Shown: piece by piece, positions 3,647 through 30,956 of the stretch
Layout of the letters: every line of letters starts with the position of its first letter
Numbering within the stretch: position 1 is the first letter of the stretch
DNA from: a virus
Taxonomy: Duplodnaviria; Caudoviricetes
Length of the DNA: 30,988 bases
IMG/VR virus record: IMGVR_UViG_3300020440_000050
Span: 1 to 30,988 of that record
Reading direction: 5' to 3' (one strand)
Position numbers and translations under genes: made by a program
The notes under the pieces: generated by a model
Told to the model about the DNA's origin: nothing
Database searches by the model: none
Seen by the model: only the letters and a program-made list of their open reading frames with translations

Positions 3647-6600
3647 CTATTCTGTTGTAGCGGCGTTAGCCAAACCATTTAATATTTGTCTTGCTCCATA
3701 TAACGAAGAGAAAGGTAGAACACGTAAAAGACTACGCAACTCGTTCTCTGTTAGTTCCCCTTCACCTATGGCATCAAATATATCTGAAACACCTTTAACT
3801 GCACCAATACCTAATGACACACCAGCAGGTGTAAGAGCATTGGTATTACCATCCATTGCACCTGTTGACAGTTGGTAGATATAACCAAACAAGGATGCAG
3901 CACCTATTTGACTTAATGCACCTTGAGCAAATCTATCCATCTGGAAATTACGCTGTAGGTATTCCTGTTGGTCACTACGTCCCATAGAATTAAGATAAGT
4001 TCTGCTCATGTACATCATACTACCCATCAAAGCAGAAAACGCCATGATACGTGCTACTTGTTGAGCGTCACCATTAACAAACCTAACGCCTAGACGCATA
4101 GCTTGTTGTTCCATAGAAGCCATAGGGAAAGATAAAAACTGAAAGAATGTTTTACCTATCTCACTACGCAGTAATCCATTTACTGAGCCATTGTTCATCT
4201 CTTGCACAAGTTGTGTAGCTTCACGTCTGGCAGACATGCTAAACACATTCTTAGCGTCTTGTAGTTCCCACTTGTCAATATTCAACGCATCTAACGCACC
4301 GTCTTTATTGTATGTCGCATGCTTTCTAATCATCTTTCCAATGTCAGATGCTACTGCATTTGATATGCCTAACTGCTCACGTTTAATAGGGGAGAATGGA
4401 ACTTTACCACGTCTTACTGCGTCTGACCATTCTGTAGCATAGTTAAGTGTAGTACCCCTACGAAGAATGTCAGTTACACCCTGAAGACCAGAAGCTACTG
4501 ACATAAAAATGCGTCCACGTCCAAGTAGAACATCCATCTCAGTAATTTCACCAGCGATTTCCATGCCACTAGCTACGTCACCCTCTAGTCTGCTTCTCAT
4601 GGTTGTAACTTTAGATACCATGCCATCACTACCCACACCAGTGACTGCCATCATCTCTCGCATTAGCTTATTATCTAACTCACCGTTCTGTGCTTTACGT
4701 ACTAAGTTTCTGAATTGAGGTACAGTTTTCATTAATGTGGTTAACGAATATTCAAACAGCACATTGGATGTTTCCATCAATGCCGCCATGCCTGACATAC
4801 CCATACTAGTGAAGAAAGAAACCTCTCTCACTCTACGTGTAATAGTCAAAGCATCGTCTGACAAGCCTGATTTGTATGCTAGTTGACCTGTTACAGAATC
4901 ATACATATACTGTAATGCGTCTATTTCTTTTTGTCTGGTTGAATCTGCTTGGTCTTTTACTTTACCTAGCAGAGTGTCAAAGCTAGACCCTAACTTGTTT
5001 GTATTGATACCATTACGAGCAAGAGCCGTAGCACCTGCTAGTTGAAATACATAACTGTCGTACAGGTTTTCCATGTTTTCTTCCAACAAGTCCGTAAACT
5101 TTAGTTGGAAAGGTTTACCGTCTGCACCTGTTACAGTAATCTCTGTACCTTCATCTAGTATCATACGTGGTTTGGCTCGTTTGTGTCCCTTTACTTCAGC
5201 AGAACGAGTAAGAGCATCAATCATTACTTCGATGTCAGCATCATCAAAACCTTCGTTCTTCATAAGCATTGTAAAGTCTTCTACATCAAAGTCACCATTA
5301 CGTAACTTAGCTGATGCTCCACCATACTTAGGGTCTACTACGTTCTTAATGTAACCACGTGACATAGAAGCAATGAAAGCTTTTACTTGCTTATTAGTCA
5401 CAGGCTTACCACGTTTCTTAGCTAACATCTTAGCTACATCACGCTCAATTTCTGGCTGACCTCTGCGTATAGCAGCTTCAGCTAGTTCACCCCAAGCCTT
5501 GTTGATAGTACCGTCAGCTTCATCTGGTAGTGTTTCTTTACGTAGTCTAGCTATGTTTCCCTTGTTAAACATTCTAGGAACATAGTTGTCAATGCGAGAT
5601 ATAACACCAGATGTAAAGCCAGCAGCGTCAGCACCTATAGCTTCTTTAGCTATGTTGTTTATCTCACGCTTGTAAATGTCTGCTGCTTCTCTAATTGTTT
5701 TATCAGCGTTAGGGTTTGGCATACGTATCTGTCTAGAGACTAGTACACTAAAATCTGAACGTGTAATATTAGGATTACGTCTGATAAAGTCATCCCTAAG
5801 AGTACGAATAGGTACAGCTACTTTAGCACGATATGACATAACCATAGTGTCACGTTGCTCTAACGCACCAAAGTTTACAGGTATGGTATTACCAGTAGCA
5901 GGGTCAACTCTGTTACCAGTACTATTTAATCCAAGACCATCTGCTAACCAACGTACTGTACCATCATCTGAATCTTTAGCACGTACAAAGGAAGACAACA
6001 CACCTCTTAATTTAGGTGCTACGCCTCTTTGCTTTGGTATTGCAGCAATCTCTTCTTCTGTCATTTCTGACAGTTCTTTTCTTTTTATACCAGCACTAGC
6101 GTCAGGTACAACAGCTTCACCTGTTTTGAAGTCGTCACCATCTAAGGCCATCTTACGAAACTGTTGAGCTAGTATCTCATCATCGTTATCTTGTAGTAAT
6201 CTTTGCTGTGCGTCTGTGAGTACCTTACCGTCTGCTTGGTCTCTGAGTGCCATCTGCACGTTAGCACGTTTGGTCATGACTTGTCCAAGTCTAGTAAAAC
6301 CTAGATTGAAGCCAGCACCTAATGCACCAGCCAGCATGATGTCACCACCTGTGATGTCATACTTAACTTGTGACCTAAGTAGTTCTAGACCAGCTAACTC
6401 TGTGCCACCAATACCAGCAGCAGCCATAAGATACTTTTTATTATTCTTAAACTTGCTAAACATGCTAAAAGTTTTAGCACCCAAAGCTGTAACAGGAGCA
6501 GCAGCAGGGGCTACAGCAGCCGTAGCAGCAGCAGTTGTAAGCATAAGTGCTGCATCATCTGGTGCAAACACATCTGCTGTAACTGTAGCTGCCAAACCTT

Positions 6601-7012: not shown

Positions 7013-10000
7013 TTATCCTTTTATAGCTTCTGCCATTTCTCTAGCACGATTAGGTGTTTGTTTTGACCAGCTAGTGGCTGTCTTTCTTTTACCACTAACA
7101 TTAAACAGCATGTGCATAGAGGCTTCTTCCAAAGCTTTTTTTTGCTCTGCTGAGTTTGTTGGTAGTGAAGCAGCTTTCTTAATAGCTGTCATAAACTTAG
7201 GCCACTCATCTCTGACGTTCTGTCTACCTAACTGAAACGCCATACTAGTGATAGCCATCTGTGTGTTATCAGGCAGGTTGTCGAAGCCGCTTACCTCATT
7301 GGTCATAAAGTCTGTAATCTTGTTTACTTTAAGTTCAATGACTGCATCAGCTTCTGGCTGCGTTATGTTGTTGATGTCTTTAATCAAAGCTTTTTCATCA
7401 CTCTCTAATGAAGGGATGTAGAAGCCATAACCTACAGATTTATTCTTACCATCTTTGTATGGGTTAGCTCTAAAGTCTTCCTGTACTTTGATTAGGCTAA
7501 CAGCTTTAGATTGTGCAGTATCGCCTTGAATTGTAGTTGTGTCTACAGCTTTGTCGCTAAAGGTTCTAGTAGATACCTCGCTAGGAGTTACCGTCACAGG
7601 TTCTGATTCTATAGTAGCTGCTTCGGCTTCGTCACTACCAAACAGACTACTTATACCTTCGCCTATGCTATCAAAGATAGATTCAAAGATACTATCACCA
7701 GCTTCGTCTACAGCGTCAGGATTGATGCCACGTTCTTGCGCTTTCTGTCTAGCTTTGTCAAGTAAAGCGTTACGCTCACCTTCCATAAACTTTGTTAGAC
7801 TTTCTCTAGCTGTGCGTCTATCAGCCTGACCAGTCAAACCTGTTATAGCTTCAAAGTCAGTGACTTCAAGTTCGCCACCTACTCTACCAGTATCAATTAC
7901 ACTAAAGTCTTCACCTTGGTCTCCAATACTATCAGCACCCAAATCCTCGTATTCTTCTAACAAGGCAGGGTCAAAGTCTGCCATAGAAATTTGACCTTTT
8001 CCAACAGCTTCGTCAAACTTAGTTACATACTGTTCTTTGATACCCTGTACTCTCATCTTATCAAACTCATGTAAGTTTATAAAATCAAGAGTTTTAGCTG
8101 TACCCTCATCTTTAGATGTAGCTATTAAGTATACTAAGTTTTCGTTACCTTCGTGATGTCGTAAACTTATTGTAAAATTAGCAGCGTCATCAAAGCCACG
8201 TACCATCAGTCCGTTTCTTCTAGCTTCCGCTAGTTGGCTACGTCCTGCTACCACAGAACCGTCTGTCATTACATAACGAGGCTCTATACCTAACTCACTA
8301 TGAATGTATCTCACTAGTTGTGCATTTTTTGTTATTTCTTCTAAACCCTGTTCTAAGTTCTCCACATATGCAGGAGTTCTTTTAGATAGTTTAGATTGTT
8401 TAACAAGTGATACACTACCGTCTGGTGACTTGACTTCCATAAAGTTAGCAGACACTTTATCAACAGCCATCTGAATTATTTGTTCATCAGACTTCTGTGG
8501 CATTATCTTTCTAAAAACTTGTGCTAACTCTTGGGCATCATTTCTCAGATAGTCTAAGTTGTGTGCATCTTCCTTATCTGTAAACTTAAATATGCCTTTG
8601 AAGCCACCATCAATAGCGTCTTTTACACTATCTGTAGTAACATCAATAGTAGCATCAAACTTGTCAATACCTTGAACATGCGACAAAGCAGTCGTAACGT
8701 CCATAATACTATTATCTACTAACGCCTGTACAGCGAGGAAACGCTCTCTAGTATCTGGTTCTAGTGTTGATAAATTACCACCAAACTTTGTAAATCTATC
8801 CATAGCTTCATAAGATGCTGCAAGATTTTGTGTATTTATGGGGTCAAGTACGTTTTGTGTTACAAGTGTACCATTAAAGGTTTGTGCAGCTTGTACTACA
8901 TCTACAGGAGTTTCACCTGTTGCTGTGTAAAACTGGTAGTATCTTGTTTGTGTAGGAATAACTTCATTTGTATTGATAGCTGCTATTCTAGCCTGTTTTT
9001 CAGTTTCAGATAAAGTATCATCATCTAATACTGCTTGTACTTTTTTCTGACTATTAATCATACGAACATTAAACTGCTCGTCTACATAGTTAGCCATGTC
9101 AATGTCACTAGGTGTCCATGTAGTACCTTCTCCATCAGGTATAGGTTCTTCTCTACCTGTGGGTAATGTACCTGAAGCACCATCAAACCAACCGTTAGCT
9201 GAGTTAGCGTACCAATTAGCTTTATAAGCATTACGTTGAGCAGTTTTACCAAGGCTGCTGGCTGATGCTATCTGTTTCCTAATTGCGGTAGCTTTATCAA
9301 TGTTTCTGTCTACATTCATTTGATTCTTAGACAGAGGACTATCTAACCACGCAACCAATGCACTGTTAGGATTAGTCTCACGCATATCAAAGGCAATACC
9401 CATCAAGTGGTCATTGATTTCTTGCTTAGTAAAATTATCACCATACGCTGCCATAAAGTTATTTACAAGAGTATTTACCTGTTCAGCCCCTGTTTGGTAT
9501 GCGTTCTTATCTGGGTTATCTTTATCCGTAAAGGCTGATTCACTCAGATTTACTTGACCAATAATAGAGGTGCCTAAAGTGCTGAGATTTATTCTTTTGT
9601 TTTCTTTAATTTTAGCAGGTTCATAAGTAGTCTTACCCCACACATTTGTGAGGGCTTCCATATTTACAGCAAACTCATCCAAAAGCATAGGGTCAATGTC
9701 TGTGCTTTTAAGTTTGTCTAACTCATCAGTAACAAAATCTCTACGCTTTTGAAGAACATCTGCGGTATTCATCTGCAAATATTCTTGCCTGTTGACTGTC
9801 CAATCTTTATCTAACTCTGCTTCAATAATTTTAGCTTGTTGGTCTAGCTGTGAAGCATGTATACGTCTTTGTCCAGTCTCTATTTCTCTCTCACGTTTTA
9901 GTCTATCAGCCTTACGTAAATTAGCATCTGCTTCTATAGCAGGAGTAATAGCTGTGAGGAATTGTGACAACTGACTAGGTTGTTGTTGTGTCTCTGGTGG

Positions 10001-10093
10001 TCTTACATAAGTTTCAACAGGAGAAGCTTGTGGACGTAAATCAGATTGTGTAGGAGCGTTAAGCCTACCTACCTGTACTCTAGTTTGTGCCAT
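7013..10093 (-). CDS. gp15: Internal virion protein gp15-like with C-terminal T4-type (GH24) lysozyme domain (1026 aa)
   Basis: Synteny. C-terminal VQEDFRANPYKDGKNKSVGYG...MAFQLG...SWSKQTPNRA resembles T4 lysozyme motifs. Confidence 0.8.
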   Translation of the reverse strand: MAQTRVQVGRLNAPTQSDLRPQASPVETYVRPPETQQQPSQLSQFLTAITPAIEADANLRKADRLKREREIETGQRRIHASQLDQQAKIIEAELDKDWTVNRQEYLQMNTADVLQKRRDFVTDELDKLKSTDIDPMLLDEFAVNMEALTNVWGKTTYEPAKIKENKRINLSTLGTSIIGQVNLSESAFTDKDNPDKNAYQTGAEQVNTLVNNFMAAYGDNFTKQEINDHLMGIAFDMRETNPNSALVAWLDSPLSKNQMNVDRNIDKATAIRKQIASASSLGKTAQRNAYKANWYANSANGWFDGASGTLPTGREEPIPDGEGTTWTPSDIDMANYVDEQFNVRMINSQKKVQAVLDDDTLSETEKQARIAAINTNEVIPTQTRYYQFYTATGETPVDVVQAAQTFNGTLVTQNVLDPINTQNLAASYEAMDRFTKFGGNLSTLEPDTRERFLAVQALVDNSIMDVTTALSHVQGIDKFDATIDVTTDSVKDAIDGGFKGIFKFTDKEDAHNLDYLRNDAQELAQVFRKIMPQKSDEQIIQMAVDKVSANFMEVKSPDGSVSLVKQSKLSKRTPAYVENLEQGLEEITKNAQLVRYIHSELGIEPRYVMTDGSVVAGRSQLAEARRNGLMVRGFDDAANFTISLRHHEGNENLVYLIATSKDEGTAKTLDFINLHEFDKMRVQGIKEQYVTKFDEAVGKGQISMADFDPALLEEYEDLGADSIGDQGEDFSVIDTGRVGGELEVTDFEAITGLTGQADRRTARESLTKFMEGERNALLDKARQKAQERGINPDAVDEAGDSIFESIFDSIGEGISSLFGSDEAEAATIESEPVTVTPSEVSTRTFSDKAVDTTTIQGDTAQSKAVSLIKVQEDFRANPYKDGKNKSVGYGFYIPSLESDEKALIKDINNITQPEADAVIELKVNKITDFMTNEVSGFDNLPDNTQMAITSMAFQLGRQNVRDEWPKFMTAIKKAASLPTNSAEQKKALEEASMHMLFNVSGKRKTATSWSKQTPNRAREMAEAIKG

Positions 10094-14174: not shown

Positions 14175-14183
14175 GTTGTCACC

Positions 14184-14447
14184 TTAGTTGCCTTTCCATT
14201 TGGTCTTGTTAGCCCAATAAGCAGCACTCTGTTCACCACGTGAAATATTCTTTCTATGTCTACTTCTGAAAGCGTCACGTTGTTTTTTGTTTTTGTTTGT
14301 CTCTACACCGTCTTGACCAAACCTAATTAGCTTTGGCTTTTCTTTGGTGCCAATAAGAACAGCATGTGACTTACCGCTTTTATGACCAGAAGTTCTGATA
14401 GGAACACGCAACGCACTAAATGTATGTCCACCACGCTGTATACTCAT
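14184..14447 (-). CDS. Small basic conserved phage protein (87 aa)
   Basis: KLIRFGQ...FRSRH...SAAYWANKTKW pattern seen in many phage hypotheticals, strongly basic. Confidence 0.75.
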   Translation of the reverse strand: MSIQRGGHTFSALRVPIRTSGHKSGKSHAVLIGTKEKPKLIRFGQDGVETNKNKKQRDAFRSRHRKNISRGEQSAAYWANKTKWKGN

Positions 14448-19019: not shown

Positions 19020-19042
19020 TTCGCTAATGTTGTAACTTTAGA
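19020..19042 (-). promoter_or_regulatory. Putative phage RNAP late promoter (phi6.5-like)
   Basis: Minus strand TCTAAAGTTACAACATTAGCGAA with the 14-bp core identical to the other copies. Overlaps the RNR stop at the start of the structural module. Confidence 0.8.
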
Positions 19043-22241: not shown

Positions 22242-22404
22242 CGTTTATATCCTCTTCTTTCTCAGCCTTGCGAAGTATGCGTAGTCCTGTTTGTACCTGT
22301 ATGTAATCTAGGTAAGCTTCCACAATCCACTTAACACTTAGACATATGCTTACACTCAGGAACGAGCAGGTTAGTATTAGCTTCCATACAAAATCAAAGT
22401 CCAT
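22222..22404 (-). CDS. Small putative membrane protein (60 aa)
   Basis: Hydrophobic N-terminal segment, SD AAGGAG, overlaps both neighbours. Confidence 0.65.
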   Translation of the reverse strand: MDFDFVWKLILTCSFLSVSICLSVKWIVEAYLDYIQVQTGLRILRKAEKEEDINDDPTAY

Positions 22405-23005
22405 GTTGGATGCACTCCTTTGCCTGTCCTACTGACATCTTAAACCACTCACCTCTACGTTCTGCTACCTTTGATGCAGCCTTGTGTGCAGCAGATTCAG
22501 CCTTGCGTCTGTCTTTAGTAGACACAGAGTACCTTACCTTGTAGTCACGGAAAGGACTGCTGGTTTGATAGCCGTTACACCTATCCTCTGCATCAACAGC
22601 CATCCCAATCTTCACCCACTCAGGCCACGCTGAGTTAGTAATAATGTAGACCTGACCCTCAGTACTACGCTCATAGTTTTGAAGACCAGAGAAAGCAGCT
22701 TCATCGAATGACTTGTATCGTCCTGCTTTCCATAAGGGGTGTGACTTAGGGATATGTTTACCATTAACATACATCCTATCAGCATCACGCTTATGCCAAC
22801 AAGACTTACAGACGTACTTAGCCTGTGCCTGTCTGGCCTCTGTCCAGTTGTCTCCTAGTACAAGCCCACTACCACAGTCGATACACTCCTTAGTGAGTGT
22901 CTGCCCAGTTGCTTCCGTACTTGTACTCACTGTCGAGTTGACATCTGAATCTGAAGTGCTGTTCGACATCTCGCATACACTGTTGAATAAGTCTGCCTGT
23001 TGCAT
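22394..23005 (-). CDS. T5orf172/GIY-YIG-like nuclease with N-terminal Cys4 zinc motif (start uncertain)
   Basis: CIDC...CKSC, then GQVYIITN...VKIGMA...RCNGYQTSSP...AESAAH...GEWF. Confidence 0.75.
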   Translation of the reverse strand: MQQADLFNSVCEMSNSTSDSDVNSTVSTSTEATGQTLTKECIDCGSGLVLGDNWTEARQAQAKYVCKSCWHKRDADRMYVNGKHIPKSHPLWKAGRYKSFDEAAFSGLQNYERSTEGQVYIITNSAWPEWVKIGMAVDAEDRCNGYQTSSPFRDYKVRYSVSTKDRRKAESAAHKAASKVAERRGEWFKMSVGQAKECIQHGL

Positions 23006-24614: not shown

Positions 24615-26231
24615 CTAAAATTCTATGTCGTCCTCTTCGTCAGAGAAGTATGTCTCAGTCATACGTCCTGTATCTGACAGATATTCTAGTGAACAACATA
24701 ATCCAGTTTCGCCTGACCATCTGTTCTTCAACACCCTGACCTGACTAATGTGTGGGTTATCCTTGTCTTGCTGGTTCCTCTCTAATCCTATCACGATGTC
24801 ACTAAGCTGACCAATAGCAGCACTACCACGTAGTTGTGACATGCTAGTCTGTGCGCCATCCTCATGTCCTCTGTCACCAGACGGACGCTTGAGGTGAGAG
24901 ATGAGTATCATACCACAGTTCAACTCTTCAACCAAAGCACGAAGCTTGGTCATAGTGTTGTCAATAATTCTACGCTCATCCCCACCTTCCATACCAGATA
25001 CAACGATACTAATATGGTCAAGGATAATATACTCGCAGCCGCAACCACGTACAAGATAGCGTATCTTGGATAAAAGATTATCGCTATCAGTGCTGCCCCA
25101 ATGGTCATACAGGTAAACCCTGCCAGAACCAACTGTAGCATCAAAAGCATTACGCATCTCCTCTTCAGGTAAGTCATTACTGTGTAGGTGTAAGGGCTGG
25201 TTGAGTTCAATAGACATCAGACCTAGAGCAGTACGCTTGATGTTCTCCTCTAGTGCTATGTATCCAATAGTCTCCCCATGTTTGATAAAGTTATAGGCAA
25301 ACTCCCTAGCCAACTGTGACTTACCAATGCCTGACCCTGCTGTAAGCGTGACAATCTCACCCTTACGACAACCACCAGTCTTCTCCTGTAGTCCAGCATA
25401 GGGGTAGCCTACTGATGCTCTGTCGTCATTGTGTATTACAATGTCCCATACATCTGTACCTGCTACAATACCATCTGGTCTAAAGGTCTTGGCTTCCCAC
25501 ATACAGTTAAGCAGTTCCTTCACACGTCCAGCTACCAACATCTCGTTGGCATCCTTCAGTGGTAGGGTAGCTATCCTACACTTGTTGGGTGGCAGTACAG
25601 ACGCACACTCTTTGGCTGCTCGTTGTCCTGCCTCATCGTTGTCGAACATAAGCACAACGTACTCGTAGTTAGACAACCATTCGATGGCCTTGCCTATTGC
25701 TTTCTTGGCTGACGTACAGCCAGAGGGCAGTGAAACCACAGGCCACTTGTGGTCTAGTGCTTGGCTAAGAGAGAGGGCATCTAGTTCCCCCTCTGTGATA
25801 GTAACAAACTTACCACTATCACGCCATAAGTGTTCGCCATACAGTGCCACATCCTTGATGTTGCCAATGACAGAGAAGTCTTTGTTAACAAAGCGTACCT
25901 TCTGTGCCTTCAGTTCACCATCACGGCTGCGATAGTTGGCTACCTGTACTGCCTGACCCTTGTAGGTTGAGACACCATAGCCCCAAACCTTACAGGTCTT
26001 CTCAGTAATACCACGCTTGGCTAGTTCTTTGAACTGTAAGTCTAAGAACATTGTGTCTGCTGTCTCAAACATAGCTACTGCCTCATCCGTTTTATCAGCA
26101 GGGGTCAGTGTCTCACAAGCGAAGCAGAAGTGATTACCATCTGCATACAAAGCATTGGCATCACTACTACCACAGTGAGGACAAGGCTCATGCCTAATGA
26201 ACTCACTTTCCGACTGCATTAACAATCTCAT
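24615..26231 (-). CDS. gp4: Primase-helicase (alternative start 26219)
   Basis: CPHC...CFAC zinc ribbon, TOPRIM TEGELDALS and FDND, Walker A AGSGIGKS, ILDHISI, LRGS, LKNR. Confidence 0.97.
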   Translation of the reverse strand: MRLLMQSESEFIRHEPCPHCGSSDANALYADGNHFCFACETLTPADKTDEAVAMFETADTMFLDLQFKELAKRGITEKTCKVWGYGVSTYKGQAVQVANYRSRDGELKAQKVRFVNKDFSVIGNIKDVALYGEHLWRDSGKFVTITEGELDALSLSQALDHKWPVVSLPSGCTSAKKAIGKAIEWLSNYEYVVLMFDNDEAGQRAAKECASVLPPNKCRIATLPLKDANEMLVAGRVKELLNCMWEAKTFRPDGIVAGTDVWDIVIHNDDRASVGYPYAGLQEKTGGCRKGEIVTLTAGSGIGKSQLAREFAYNFIKHGETIGYIALEENIKRTALGLMSIELNQPLHLHSNDLPEEEMRNAFDATVGSGRVYLYDHWGSTDSDNLLSKIRYLVRGCGCEYIILDHISIVVSGMEGGDERRIIDNTMTKLRALVEELNCGMILISHLKRPSGDRGHEDGAQTSMSQLRGSAAIGQLSDIVIGLERNQQDKDNPHISQVRVLKNRWSGETGLCCSLEYLSDTGRMTETYFSDEEDDIEF

Positions 26232-26466
26232 TAATGATGTACTGTAAGCCTTGGACTATATCATTAACTTCATCAGCATCATAGACATCATCCCTTATAT
26301 CTTCAAGGATATTCTCTGCCATCTGTTCCCATGTCACATCATCTGAGAATAGTTCGTCATCAATGTAGATACTGGTAGACAACCCTGTTGAGTATAGGTT
26401 CACCATCACATCAACCTCTGACGTAATCTCAGTTGTTAGTTCATCTTTTGTTTCAATCAAACTCAT
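26203..26466 (-). CDS. Highly acidic hypothetical protein (87 aa)
   Basis: ATGA overlap with the endonuclease stop, SD GAGGAG. By hand count 22 Asp/Glu versus 3 Lys/Arg. Confidence 0.8.
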   Translation of the reverse strand: MSLIETKDELTTEITSEVDVMVNLYSTGLSTSIYIDDELFSDDVTWEQMAENILEDIRDDVYDADEVNDIVQGLQYIINEIVNAVGK

Positions 26467-26828
26467 AGTAACCACTCCTCAGGTACTGTTCCTTCTGCCC
26501 ACATAAAACCATTACGGTCTGCCCATTCTTTACAGGTCATCTTGCTTCCATCCTTTCGCTTCTTGGCACCCTGTACTGTAGCACTAGCGTTCTGGAATAC
26601 AAACCTGATGTCCAACTCTGGATGCTGTGCCTTGACAGCCTTCATCTTTCGTTGGGCATCCTGTCTGAAGTATCCCTTTAGTTCTACAATCATTGTGCCT
26701 ACTGCTAAGTCAGGGATGTAGTGACGTTCCACATAGTAGGCCAGCTTCTCTGGCTCATACTTATATGCAACGCCACGTTCATCAAGGTCACTGATGACCC
26801 TCGCCTCAAAAGTCCCCTTCGTTGGCAT
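26463..26828 (-). CDS. gp3: Endonuclease I (Holliday junction resolvase) (121 aa)
   Basis: FEARV...YEPEKL.Y...YIPDL...VELKGYF...HPELDIRFVFQ...WA..NGF. Confidence 0.95.
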   Translation of the reverse strand: MPTKGTFEARVISDLDERGVAYKYEPEKLAYYVERHYIPDLAVGTMIVELKGYFRQDAQRKMKAVKAQHPELDIRFVFQNASATVQGAKKRKDGSKMTCKEWADRNGFMWAEGTVPEEWLL

Positions 26829-27457: not shown

Positions 27458-27480
27458 CTTGGCTAGGTTGTAACTTTAGA
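27458..27480 (-). promoter_or_regulatory. Putative phage RNAP middle promoter
   Basis: Minus strand TCTAAAGTTACAACCTAGCCAAG, intergenic, 2 nt after the RNAP stop and upstream of ssb. Confidence 0.85.
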
Positions 27481-27482
27481 AA

Positions 27483-29132
27483 TCACGCAAAGAAATACTC
27501 CGATTGTAGTATCTCACGCAAATTTAATTCACCCCTAGCTGGTGGCACTGGTACATCTTCAGTACCTAGTACCTTGATAGCATGTTGTCTCAACTCTGTC
27601 AACACATCATGCTGCTCATACATATTAACAAACTCCTCACGTAATACCTCAGACAACAGTGGCATCATACTACTGTGTGTACCGTAGCTGTCGTGTACCA
27701 TAGCAAAGTCTTGGATGCCTAGCTTGCTTGCCTTGTTGATAGTCTTGGTCATAGCTGACGCATCCAGACTGTGGATAAAGTTAGGGCTGCTGCCCAACCC
27801 TGTCCTCTGCCTGTTCACAGAGTTTGGTTTGTCTTTGGGAAAGGACAACGACACGATGTCCCCATTGATATGTGTCTTGATTCTTTTCTGCTGCACCTCA
27901 CTGTATTGTTGTAACACTAACCATCCTGTAGGTGTGACCCACTCCATGTGCCTGTTCATCTGAGCATACACATCAGCCACATCCTTGATGTAGTCCATCA
28001 CCTTACGTGCTGACACAATCACCTCACTGATTGAATCCCACACGTGACCAGCTAGGTAGCTGGATGCCTCAAACAAATCATCACCGAATGGGTTAGGCTC
28101 ACCATCATCTATCTTGTCGTGCATAGCTTCCTCAATGTAGCCACGACATGCGTGACGTGTACCTGAGTAGGGGACAATCATCACTGGACGCTTGGCAAGC
28201 TTCCTGTCTATGCCAAAGGCCAAGCACTTACGTGCTAGTTCTGTGTCGTCCTGCTGCACACGTGCGATAGTCTTGTCTGCCACCTGTGTGTAGATGTCTT
28301 GAGGTATGCCTGATGGTACTAGGTTGGTAGCAATGCCACCCTGCCTGTCCCTCAGTATAGCAGAGAGGTGCTGTAGCCCATTGCAGCTACCATCTGCTGA
28401 CACAGGTAGGCGTGTCTCGTACCCCCAGCTATGCTTCATCAGGCCTGACATCTCGTAGCACCACGCCAAGAACTGGAATGGTTTGTCTGCCTCAAGCCAG
28501 ACCAAGCACTCGTATGGGTTGGACACAATGCGGTGCGCCCACATCTCTGCGTACTCCCATGCCCATGTCTCACGCTGGTCTAGTGTAACCTTGTCGTTAC
28601 CATACAGGTTAGCACCATGAATACACAACCACCGTGCGTCATCCCAATTGTTGATAGCCATTGGGTAGCCAAACTCAAGCAATGCCTTGCTCCAATCGGC
28701 AGACTGAGGTGAGAGGAACGTGCTGCTTGCATACTTGCGAGAACGAAAGTCGTTCTGCCATACGTAATAGAACCTGTCGTACCCAGCAAACTGTTCTGCT
28801 ATCTGTAGTGTACGCTCTACTTGTATGCGCTTGCTCACGCTGCGATTGTTGAGAGAGTAGATGTGATTACGCTTGCGTGACCATGCACGAAACTCATCCC
28901 TCTCATCCTCAGTCAACTGCTTGGGGTCACGATCAAAGGGATACTCAGGTAGTGGTACATCCTCTTTGGCTGGTAGCTTACCCCATTCATGTCCGTTGTC
29001 CCATATGGTACGCATCACCTCAAGCAATGGCTTGTTGATACGCCACTCTGTCCGTTGCAGTGTGTTAAGACAGGCATACTCTTGGATCAAGTCTTCCTGT
29101 CTTAGTCTGCGTAGGTGTGTCTTCAAACTCAT
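27483..29132 (-). CDS. gp1: T7-like RNA polymerase, C-terminal catalytic part (549 aa)
   Basis: WRINK, DFRSR (DxxGR-like), motif A DGSCNGLQH, motif B RKLAKRPVMIVPYS, PNFIHSLDA, motif C VHDSY, terminal YFFA. SD GAGG 5 nt before the ATG. Confidence 0.95.
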   Translation of the reverse strand: MSLKTHLRRLRQEDLIQEYACLNTLQRTEWRINKPLLEVMRTIWDNGHEWGKLPAKEDVPLPEYPFDRDPKQLTEDERDEFRAWSRKRNHIYSLNNRSVSKRIQVERTLQIAEQFAGYDRFYYVWQNDFRSRKYASSTFLSPQSADWSKALLEFGYPMAINNWDDARWLCIHGANLYGNDKVTLDQRETWAWEYAEMWAHRIVSNPYECLVWLEADKPFQFLAWCYEMSGLMKHSWGYETRLPVSADGSCNGLQHLSAILRDRQGGIATNLVPSGIPQDIYTQVADKTIARVQQDDTELARKCLAFGIDRKLAKRPVMIVPYSGTRHACRGYIEEAMHDKIDDGEPNPFGDDLFEASSYLAGHVWDSISEVIVSARKVMDYIKDVADVYAQMNRHMEWVTPTGWLVLQQYSEVQQKRIKTHINGDIVSLSFPKDKPNSVNRQRTGLGSSPNFIHSLDASAMTKTINKASKLGIQDFAMVHDSYGTHSSMMPLLSEVLREEFVNMYEQHDVLTELRQHAIKVLGTEDVPVPPARGELNLREILQSEYFFA

Positions 29133-29926
29133 TTGCGCCTCACTATAGGTAATTCGTCTATGTCGTGACCATGAAACCCACCACCCTGTACATCTGTCCA
29201 GTCCTTGGGTGGTACTATGCAGGGCAAGTATCGTGGCCTTGATACTTCCATGTATTCGTTGAACGCTTTGATAAACTCAAGCGTACCATCAGTAGGTTTG
29301 ACATAGGTAGCCCTACGTCTACGCTCAGTCTGCTGTGTGTCCAGCTTTACAATGCCTGTGTGCTGGATGATTATGTCAACCATCTTAAAGCCTACATGCA
29401 CACGCTCTGACTTCAGCCATGCTGATTCTTCATACCCATCCTTGTTCATCTTGTGCGTCAGGCCGTAGCGTCTAGCACCATAGGCTTTCTTCATAGCCTC
29501 TTTGATTGTGTTCTTTGCTACGCTACCCTCTGCGTGTACCCATCTGTCTAGTCTATCCTGCATCTCAATGTTAGTACCAATGGTACGTGCCACATGCAGC
29601 AGTGTGTTCTTCCTGCTGATGCTGTCAACCAACGACACCACTGAGAGGTAGGCTACCTGCTCTGCATCCATATCCTTGACACGCTTCCATGCTATGTCTC
29701 GTGATGGATTGCTAGGGTTGGCTAGGTACTGTTCAATACCCTGTGCTACTTGCCCCACAACTGTACCCACAATGGCTCTACCATGTGGCAGGTGTGATTC
29801 CCTACCCTTTTCAATGGCCTTGTCTCTGGCCTTCCTGAAGCGATTGACACCACCTGTCAGCATGTCTGCCTCAAGTTCAAGCTGATGCTCAAATAGGTCT
29901 TGGTTAGTTTCTAAAGTTACAACCAT
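29129..29926 (-). CDS. gp1: T7-like RNA polymerase, N-terminal domain part (265 aa)
   Basis: QLELE...GVNRF, IGTNIEMQ.R, W...ERVHVG, P.YLPCIVPPKDW...GGGF match the T7 RNAP N-terminal ~300 residues. SD AAGGGGGT. Confidence 0.92.
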   Translation of the reverse strand: MVVTLETNQDLFEHQLELEADMLTGGVNRFRKARDKAIEKGRESHLPHGRAIVGTVVGQVAQGIEQYLANPSNPSRDIAWKRVKDMDAEQVAYLSVVSLVDSISRKNTLLHVARTIGTNIEMQDRLDRWVHAEGSVAKNTIKEAMKKAYGARRYGLTHKMNKDGYEESAWLKSERVHVGFKMVDIIIQHTGIVKLDTQQTERRRRATYVKPTDGTLEFIKAFNEYMEVSRPRYLPCIVPPKDWTDVQGGGFHGHDIDELPIVRRK

Positions 29927-29932
29927 GAGAAG
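29910..29932 (+). promoter_or_regulatory. Inverted (antisense) phage RNAP promoter over the RNAP start codon
   Basis: Plus strand TCTAAAGTTACAACCATGAGAAG, identical to the 4593-4615 copy, predicted +1 at 29927. Confidence 0.75.
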
Positions 29933-29951
29933 ACCCCCTTTTACTATATAC

Positions 29952-29992
29952 TATAACATGTATAACATGTATTACATTTAAGACATGTCTTA
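29952..29992. repeat. AT-rich 9-bp tandem repeats and 14-bp palindrome
   Basis: TATAACATG-TATAACATG-TATTACATT (29952-29978) then perfect palindrome TAAGACATGTCTTA (29979-29992). Confidence 0.8.
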
Positions 29993-30142
29993 GATGGATA
30001 GCATCCCTGCTATACCGATGGTGAATACACCTACTAACATGACTACAAACTGTACACCTGTTACTGATTCATAGTCACCTATCATACCTACTACTGCTAC
30101 TGCTATCATAGATACAATCCATACTGTAAGTAGTGCATCCAT
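29990..30142 (-). CDS. Small two-helix membrane protein (50 aa)
   Basis: Not in ORF track: MDALLTVWIVSMIAVAVVGMIGDYESVTGVQFVVMLVGVFTIGIAGMLSI. TAATG coupling and SD GGAG. Confidence 0.75.
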   Translation of the reverse strand: MDALLTVWIVSMIAVAVVGMIGDYESVTGVQFVVMLVGVFTIGIAGMLSI

Positions 30143-30321
30143 TATGCTTCTCCATAATTATTTAGTAACCAAGTCTCAAGTGGTGACTGGATTACTGCTT
30201 CTGGTTCTTCTGCCCACTGCATCTGACACTCAGGGCAGTAGTATTCAATCATCCCATCCACTGCGTACAAGGCTTCAGCCTCACCACTACAGTGCATACA
30301 GTTCTTATACCCCATGCTCAT
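30142..30321 (-). CDS. Small early zinc-ribbon protein (59 aa)
   Basis: CMHC-x17-CPEC. ATG at 30321 follows GAGGAAGGA, so the longer track start is unlikely. Confidence 0.7.
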   Translation of the reverse strand: MSMGYKNCMHCSGEAEALYAVDGMIEYYCPECQMQWAEEPEAVIQSPLETWLLNNYGEA

Positions 30322-30553
30322 TGCTCTGTCCTTCCTCTTTGGTACGCAACAATTCCCCCTGCACATACCCCATCTTAAACTTGATATGATACTGAGCCTG
30401 TTTGTTCTTATCATACTGGTTCTCATAAGTCAACCCATGATAGCCATTGTGATAGCCCATAACGTAGGCATCGTCATACTTGTTACGCTTCTGATACATT
30501 GATTGTCTCCGTCTGGTCTGCATCACTGCTCTTTGTATTGGTGTCACTCTCAT
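30305..30553 (-). CDS. Early hypothetical protein (82 aa)
   Basis: TAATG coupling with the upstream gene, repeated Y..GY..G pattern. Confidence 0.7.
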   Translation of the reverse strand: MRVTPIQRAVMQTRRRQSMYQKRNKYDDAYVMGYHNGYHGLTYENQYDKNKQAQYHIKFKMGYVQGELLRTKEEGQSNEHGV

Positions 30554-30753
30554 TAGAATAGTGGTGTAAATTCTACACCATCCTCGTGCTGCTGCTTCAG
30601 TGTGCGTAGCTGCTGTCGCATAGCTGTTACATCTTCACCATCCCACTCTGCATCTTGTATCTTGATGGATAGTGCTGTCATTTTTTTGACAGTAGGTTCT
30701 AGCCTGTCGTCAGAGTACACGTCCTTGCAGTATGAATCAATGTACATGCTCAT
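30553..30753 (-). CDS. Early hypothetical protein (66 aa)
   Basis: ATGA overlap at 30750-30753 with SD GGAGAGG. MSMYIDSY...VEFTPLF. Confidence 0.7.
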   Translation of the reverse strand: MSMYIDSYCKDVYSDDRLEPTVKKMTALSIKIQDAEWDGEDVTAMRQQLRTLKQQHEDGVEFTPLF

Positions 30754-30956
30754 GCGTCCTCTCCCTGTGGGTACATAGCTACCCCTGTGTAATAGATGGT
30801 ATCCCAATTTATACCAATGGTTGCGTCATGCCTATGCTGCAAAGCATGTAGCACCTCATATGCTTGGTCTTCTGTTAGCCAGTCACACTCTAGCAACACG
30901 TCTGCAACAGACCACACGATTGCAATCTCACTGTCTTTTAAGTTAAGTGTCGTCAT
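30750..30956 (-). CDS. Early hypothetical protein (68 aa)
   Basis: SD GAGGTAAGG. W...DV......LT..QA.EVL......HDA.IGINW pattern common in phage early genes. Confidence 0.75.
   Translation of the reverse strand: MTTLNLKDSEIAIVWSVADVLLECDWLTEDQAYEVLHALQHRHDATIGINWDTIYYTGVAMYPQGEDA

Follow-up and report, generated by a model that had tools for sequence, protein, structure and literature searches.

A predicted promoter of the phage's own RNA polymerase (RNAP) lies in reverse orientation on the RNAP start codon of an uncultured T7-like marine phage. We describe it here as a clade-defining reversed self-promoter, fused with the RNAP translation start, whose function we infer from comparison. With a probability of about 0.5, its main role would be to dampen the expression of RNAP and of the early genes, through a leftward transcript antisense to these genes and to the RNAP ribosome-binding site.

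The reversed copy and its genomic setting

The window, i.e. the whole stretch of DNA analysed, is the record of this phage (30,988 bases, 76% complete). All its recognised genes are on the minus strand, in the order RNAP, SSB, endonuclease, primase/helicase, DNA polymerase, exonuclease, MazG and B12-type RNR, followed by portal, capsid, tail and internal virion genes. What the sequence-only reading called the RNAP gene does encode RNAP, but it is actually the first of two genes: one for an N-terminal subunit of 265 aa (RNAP N, 29129..29926, minus strand; Pfam RPOL_N, PHROG 414) and one for a catalytic subunit of 549 aa that holds the specificity loop (RNAP C, 27483..29132, minus strand; Pfam RNA_pol). 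They are joined by an ATGA overlap and total 814 aa, and the best cultured RNAP match has 39% identity. The split recurs in all 80 loci of our set of relatives, and an assembly error behind the split or behind the reversed copy was ruled out, since both recur in independent contigs. No relatives were found in GTDB genomes, so that a host or prophage reading was rejected; the sequencing runs with a close relative are labelled as estuary, marine, seawater or viral metagenomes. A search of Rfam with the window and the related locus L004 gave no matches.

Some other features of these genomes were recorded. A T5orf172/MUG113 endonuclease-like ORF (22394-23005, minus strand) overlaps the end of the DNA polymerase gene; an acidic 90-aa ORF of no clear family (26203-26475, minus strand) occupies the slot of the T7-type lysozyme in cultured marine relatives; and the virion protein at the gp15 position (7013-10093, minus strand, 1026 aa) has no PHROG match. 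In some co-occurring strains a 249-bp early-region segment (L004:4126-4376) is swapped for 31 other bases.

The reversed copy is on the plus strand. Its predicted -17..-1 part (29910..29926) covers RNAP N codons 1-6 and, as had been claimed, the first 17 bases of the 23-mer are the reverse complement of the codons for M V V T L E (start at 29926). The base at 29927, the predicted +1, is a G adjoining the start codon, and the bases downstream are those given before. The predicted initial transcribed region (29927..29938, plus strand) is complementary to the RNAP Shine-Dalgarno, and a run of five C at 29934-29938 corresponds to +8..+12 of the predicted transcript. On the minus strand, the Shine-Dalgarno of RNAP N, of the A2-G5-T type as read from the sequence, is at 29933..29940; a Shine-Dalgarno pairs with 16S rRNA. 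Then comes an AT-rich tail (29939..29986, plus strand), homologous to the tail of the phiOR-like promoter that follows terminase in relatives; its 81% AT ties the highest 48-nt value of the window. The site had thus been placed correctly, but the element runs about 60 bases further than was stated, with the tail sequence at 29927-29986. Small early ORFs (29990..30956, minus strand) lie beyond it, antisense to the would-be leftward transcript from 29927.

The core 13-mer occurs four times in the window, three times on the minus and once on the plus strand, against 0.14±0.40 copies expected, and none of 100 shuffles reached four. Concerning the claim of a perfect 23-mer, the sequence is indeed present at 29910-29932, but it is identical at 23/23 positions only to a copy inside the gp16-like gene; it differs at 4/23 from the copy after RNAP C and at 7/23 from the one at the RNR end.

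The motif as a predicted promoter of the phage's own RNAP

The three sense copies, all on the minus strand, are found directly after RNAP C and before SSB (27458..27480, predicted +1 at 27463), at the end of the RNR gene and before the late genes (19020..19042, +1 at 19025) and inside the gp16-like gene (4593..4615, +1 at 4598). The last one replaces an intergenic copy before the tail-fibre gene, which the window does not have; it is kept in 5/6 gp16 relatives, which are likewise without the intergenic copy. L098 offers a natural control: it possesses the intergenic tail-fibre copy, and synonymous changes remove its gp16-internal one. Across L096-L101 the two copies alternate. In five near-complete relatives (G001-G005) the motif is found after terminase, after RNAP and at the RNR end, and before the tail-fibre gene in 4/5; in each of the five the RNAP-start copy is the reversed one, and G005 has one additional weak reversed match. 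The window and these genomes therefore have 4-5 copies at T7-like positions.

The +1 sits 17 nt from the AT-rich upstream end, in a register that agrees with the T7 consensus. In T7, residue Q758 contacts promoter base -8; the RNAP loop residue aligned to it with HMMER is S or T wherever -8 is A (16/16 rows) and Q, R, K or M wherever it is another base (9/9), although these rows are related and the P values of the co-variation overstate their independence. From -7 to -2, the copies of the outgroup agree with the T7 consensus as quoted in PMC10134795. The earlier proposal that the motif is a phage-RNAP promoter (predicted) is thus borne out by its T7-like positions, its purine at +1 and its association with the specificity loop. 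From these comparisons, RNAP very probably initiates RNA at 29927. Reading the motif in the opposite direction was ruled out by its placement before SSB, late and tail-fibre genes, by the purine at +1 and by the loop co-variation.

No copy of the motif lies before the major capsid gene in the window. A core motif with two mismatches (14175-14187, minus strand) abuts the start of tail tubular protein A and is possibly a weak late promoter. At L110:5135-5170, L112:9457-9495 and the phiOR of L014/L016, the promoter is followed by a hairpin of a C run and a G run plus a T tract, terminator-like and about 35-45 nt after +1.

Selection on the reversed copy

The reversed copy was found in 74/80 related loci; L029 does not cover the region, and in L076-L080 the copy is absent. 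When -1 was located by the motif alone, it fell on an in-frame ATG (49) or TTG (24) in 73 of the 74 loci, and +1 was a purine (G or A) in all 74. Since many loci are near-duplicates, and L001 is possibly the window's own genome, more weight should be given to the counts by cluster (defined at 85% aa), and the clusters are themselves still related. Over 19 clusters, the mismatches of the reversed copy to the post-RNAP copy of its own genome total 10, against 41.2±5.5 with partners shuffled (20,000 shuffles). For Thr4 and for Leu5 a single codon is used in 19/19 clusters, while single-codon use was found at 0/28 of the other invariant 4- or 6-fold residues. The -8 base is identical in reversed and sense copies in 19/19 lineages and the C run begins at +8 or +9 in 19/19, making the first 12-13 nt anti-Shine-Dalgarno. 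The sequence-only reading had proposed to look in relatives for conservation of the reversed copy and for its co-variation with the promoter of each genome, and both hold.

The reversed copy might have been a by-product, due to chance, of the codons for the conserved T-L-E residues, and outside the clade T-L-E codons can indeed yield a promoter match of 8-10 nt (L230). However, such a product is contradicted by the codon fixation in 19/19 clusters against 0/28 controls and, unlike it, the reversed copy tracks the promoter variants and the loop residue; mismatches in the best inverted match number 0-2 in 21 clusters and 3-6 in the other 19. We consider a chance origin extremely improbable and, on these sequence comparisons, already largely refuted; judged in the same way, the reversed copy is real and under selection.

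In L075 (L075:1244-1261) the reversed copy equals the sense copy at all 17 positions and there is no canonical start codon at that place; in this single contig, an in-frame GTG lies 18 nt upstream of the usual start position.

Relationship with the phiOR-like module

The phiOR-like promoter is not within the window, and the homology of the tail rests on relatives, among which L004 has an RNAP N 100% identical to that of the window and the same 60-nt tail. In 24 loci that run from terminase to RNAP, the reversed and the phiOR-like promoters converge across the predicted terminal repeat and the early genes. The tail of the reversed copy matches the phiOR-like tail of its own genome at 62/63 nt in L009 and at 57/63 in L004. 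Ranked in 14 lineages, the own-genome phiOR partner came first in 6, second or third in 4 (top three in 10/14) and poorly in 4. Local tail scores against phiOR in G001-G005 were 57, 21, 8, 32 and 9, compared with 5-10 against the other copies, and in close strains both tails are altered together.

Since G/C runs and AT-rich tracts are carried also by outgroup phiOR copies, phiOR is likely the donor of the module, and the reversed element probably arose by inverted duplication of the right-end phiOR-like module. T-L-E is found at the RNAP N terminus in the outgroup as well; its codons, which on the opposite strand already resemble the promoter's upstream half, would ease a duplication into register, and the C run of the duplicated module would then have served as the RNAP Shine-Dalgarno. 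The sequence-only reading, although right on the position, missed this inverted-copy relation, which raises the replication-origin reading considered below.

Some observations were made around phiOR. Long imperfect palindromes follow it in several loci (L004:638-730, L020, L046, L051), with a z of -4.8 in L004; we take them to be reminiscent of the T7 right-end hairpin. At L004:959-1167, and in G001-G005, a predicted terminal repeat of about 200 bp lies between a conserved block after phiOR and a junction pause motif; the latter, T7-like, is found in 4/5 near-complete genomes. In the terminal-repeat region of L004, RNA contigs from two studies end at positions 1029 and 1056, and three begin at 1432-1437. 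The stretch of L004 at about 1060-1310, without RNA cover, was left out as evidence.

Possible functions of the reversed copy

Under the favoured reading, autoregulation, RNAP would, once made, fire leftward from 29927. By geometry, an RNA starting there is complementary to the RNAP Shine-Dalgarno from +8 and then to all early mRNAs. The antisense RNA would cover the polymerase's own ribosome-binding site, and the leftward RNAP would meet head-on the host polymerase coming from early promoters; as a result, the expression of RNAP and of the early genes would be damped. The leftward RNA is presumably long: on the antisense strand of the early region neither a terminator (hairpin plus U, <= -9 kcal) nor a class II-type pause was found in any of the 5 near-complete genomes. 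There is no conserved antisense ORF, any such ORF being present in only 2/19 lineages, and a divergent promoter for a leftward gene was ruled out on this ground. Negative feedback appears the most probable effect given the antisense geometry, the lack of a terminator in the five genomes and the lack of a conserved gene to express. That the RNAP start is a control point is suggested by cultured relatives, which place a sense self-promoter there.

The proposal had also named occlusion; direct occlusion of a host promoter is unsupported, as the sequence immediately upstream of RNAP yielded no conserved sigma-70 promoter (best scores 7-9/12). An overlapping host sigma-70 promoter was rejected, as a -10-like hexamer is frequent there with no conserved -35, and the sigma-70 scan of the window is at chance level (10 found, 8.6±3.6 expected). 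A trans-acting anti-Shine-Dalgarno role for the phiOR RNA is not general, since several phiOR tails have a G run.

As for transcript data, RNA contigs from two studies (perhaps of one campaign) break at L004:4915-4925, on the Shine-Dalgarno beside the predicted +1 (4936), a weak hint, while 3 of 4 DNA runs continue across these positions. Of the RNA runs, X9 continues through the site, and X12 has no listed piece there. All these are unstranded contigs, and they do not decide between autoregulation and a replication origin.

Autoregulation does not explain the likeness of the tail to that of phiOR, which persists even where phiOR has a G run and not an anti-Shine-Dalgarno C run (L183/L176), and the exact register can be a frozen overlap. 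It is a serious possibility, though short of probable, that selection has kept the element as a leftward RNA-primed replication origin, the mirror image of phiOR, with the effects on RNAP expression as a by-product: the C run would anchor a short RNA, RNAP would be released in the AT-rich tract and DNA polymerase would take over. In T7 the origins face rightward, and the primary one is located after gene 1, the position of the post-RNAP promoter site. A C run follows the post-RNAP promoter in 8/19 clusters without the reversed copy and in 0/21 with it, which would suit an origin, but a sister temperate cluster also lacks that run. The match with the own-genome phiOR-like tail, found within the top three partners in most lineages, points the same way; however, it may be explained by gene conversion between inverted repeats (in L170 the phiOR tail follows the Shine-Dalgarno-type change of the reversed copy) and it is weak in 4/14 lineages. 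Similarly, the AT fraction is 0.72 in the tail and 0.64 downstream of the post-RNAP copy (Wilcoxon P 0.0016 over 19 lineages), but in G002, G003 and G005 the tail is no richer in AT than those of the other copies. A C run is already accounted for by the Shine-Dalgarno; on the other hand, a C or G run is present in 8/11 phiOR tails of the clade, where there is no gene to serve, and L075 keeps a perfect copy and the C run despite having no canonical start codon there. The site lies at 7.7-11.9% from the predicted left end, and T7 phiOR is described as a secondary origin, every T7 origin requiring a T7 promoter (PMC8373140; bioRxiv 2024.07.25.605042). Against an origin, the strong phiOR palindrome is mostly missing from the reversed tail and phiOR folds more stably in 12/13 pairs, the exception being the window's own group. 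By inspection, what we assume to be a T7-type primase site coincides in part with the G run in some lineages but is missing from others, and the phage's own site may differ. The readings are not exclusive, as one RNA might serve both autoregulation and DNA priming.

Two further functions were considered. The element could act on concatemers or circles together with phiOR, blocking phiOR or late read-through into the early genes or aiding terminal-repeat duplication. The two elements do point towards each other, 2.9-5.1 kb apart, with the predicted terminal repeat (L004 about 959-1160) between them, and what we take to be the T7-like junction pause motif is at L004 1161, after it. We regard this as improbable, however, as 3.1-4.8 kb separate the element from the predicted left end, a long way for a role in the terminal repeat, such a role does not need the overlap with the start codon, and no inversion joints were found in 8 runs. 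In support, a read-through role is proposed for the antisense promoter P001 by the authors of the LUZ19 paper (PMC10914365), and pausing of T7 RNAP at the junction is reported to start packaging (PMC3276506). An invertible segment between the inverted repeats was likewise rejected, no strand-changing joints appearing in the contigs of the 8 runs, which show presence and not absence. Alternatively, RNAP could simply bind its own start codon as an operator-like roadblock, with little or abortive RNA. The conserved part does coincide with the binding determinants (-17..-5), and the pyrimidine run at +8..+16 could favour abortive release; yet +1 is a purine in every locus with the copy and the identical 23 nt form the apparent tail-fibre promoter inside gp16, so that we hold this to be highly improbable.

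Coming back to autoregulation, a single leftward initiation might also be a protein-free switch, which silences RNAP and early expression and primes replication at the same time. We find this combined role somewhat unlikely; if true, the switch would cover the jobs done in other T7-like phages by lysozyme, by gp2/gp0.7 and by a MarR repressor.

Distribution across split-RNAP phages

The 19 lineages with the reversed copy form one branch among the split-RNAP phages (SH-aLRT 100), in a quick version of the tree where L118 is labelled as having no inverted copy though its start region is uncovered. An extended set of 172 usable loci (re-fetches included) gave 40 clusters. The reversed copy is present in 21 of them, none of which has a MarR-like gene or an integrase; 12 of the 19 clusters without it have these genes. 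Among the clusters without the copy, four have more than 2.5 kb of upstream DNA and neither gene, and three more are too short to judge. L205, which spans terminase to RNAP, has neither a lysogeny cassette nor a reversed copy. On this evidence the reversed copy accompanies a lytic layout, which can also exist without it, and because it marks one clade its link with the loss of the lysogeny cassette counts as a single event. The idea of an obligatory replacement of the repressor is not general, since lineages without either exist, a point that the sequence-only reading had also missed.

In temperate loci (L076, L078, L102-L112, L206-L255), a MarR-like gene and an integrase precede the split RNAP; operator-like palindromes occur in the temperate split-RNAP loci, and several close relatives are without the cassette, suggesting repeated loss.

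The sequence-only reading recognised no gp0.7, gp2 or gp3.5. The absence of a gp3.5-type lysozyme was confirmed, as neither the split-RNAP loci nor G001-G005 yielded a T7-type amidase; such an enzyme is present in three cultured marine phages, and missing as well from the lineages without the reversed copy. PHROGs likewise recognised neither gp0.7 nor gp2 in the early ORFs of the window and of G001, most of which have no annotation. The feedback reading fits a clade without a repressor and without a lysozyme.

None of 8 cultured records has a reversed promoter at the RNAP start. A sense copy is found there in five cultured phages, with direct matches in CRP-125, CRP-171, HTVC168P and HTVC142P, plus phi1 in LUZ100. 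The best inverted 15-mer in the cultured controls matches at 10-11/15 in seven and at 14/15 in HTVC011P, and the latter was read not as a promoter but as a palindromic operator-like repeat.

Comparison with known systems

The sequence-only reading implied that an inverted phage promoter is unique, which goes too far. P001 of LUZ19 is an antisense phage-specific promoter mapped by transcript ends and found in 15 other Phikmvvirus species (PMC10914365). As described there, P001 resembles the element presented here in being one conserved phage-RNAP promoter directed against all genes, in the early part of a genome with few phage promoters, and its role too is a hypothesised regulation. However, P001 is at the far left end, preceding the early promoters used by the host polymerase, and its transcription crosses the genome junction and enters late genes, whereas the reversed copy lies behind all early genes and is antisense to the RNAP Shine-Dalgarno. 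It also differs in lying on the RNAP start codon, in sharing its tail with a phiOR-like copy and in being predicted from sequence.

According to the accounts cited above for T7 origins (PMC8373140; bioRxiv 2024.07.25.605042), phiOR is a phage promoter after terminase with an RNAP-primed origin logic, and the module found here is similar; like the T7 primary origin phi1.1A/B, the reversed element is close to the RNAP gene and about 10% in from the left end. T7 lysozyme, which exerts feedback on RNAP (PMC10134795; bioRxiv 2024.07.25.605042) and is described as stimulating priming, has no counterpart in the present clade, and by inspection no conserved T7-type primase site was seen here. LUZ100 phi1 is also a phage promoter at the start of the RNAP gene, through which RNAP acts on its own expression; as presented in PMC10134795, it is in sense orientation, with a proposed positive feedback under MarR control in temperate T7-like phages. 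The copy discussed here is reversed, with a predicted negative feedback and with MarR and integrase absent. Concerning the polymerase itself, N4 RNAPII (gp15/gp16) is also described as made of an N part and a catalytic part (PMC4496689), but the enzyme of this clade is of full T7 size and has double-stranded T7-type promoters. The RNAP of the Pelagibacter phage HTVC025P is also annotated as split, with no inverted self-promoter.

A reversed self-promoter over the RNAP start codon was not found in the literature searched, mostly main texts of open-access papers. In papers on marine Autographiviridae (PMC12361551, PMC11092137, bioRxiv 410191), the main text contains neither the word "promoter" nor the word "split". 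Reversed phage promoters were already known from LUZ19 and other Phikmvvirus species, and what appears to be new is the location on the RNAP start codon.

Significance

These results bear on how T7-like phages without lysozyme or recognisable inhibitors of the host RNAP limit their polymerase and shift from early transcription to replication, for which this clade offers a testable answer in about 80 bp. The opening codons of the RNAP gene would here be constrained by the specificity of the very enzyme that it encodes, and the clade gives a promoter-to-loop recognition code for the two-subunit RNAP family. It is also a possible record of a temperate phage rewiring the control of its RNAP after the loss of a repressor. 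If confirmed, it would provide a natural design of negative feedback for T7-type RNAPs, of interest for expression systems that limit themselves.
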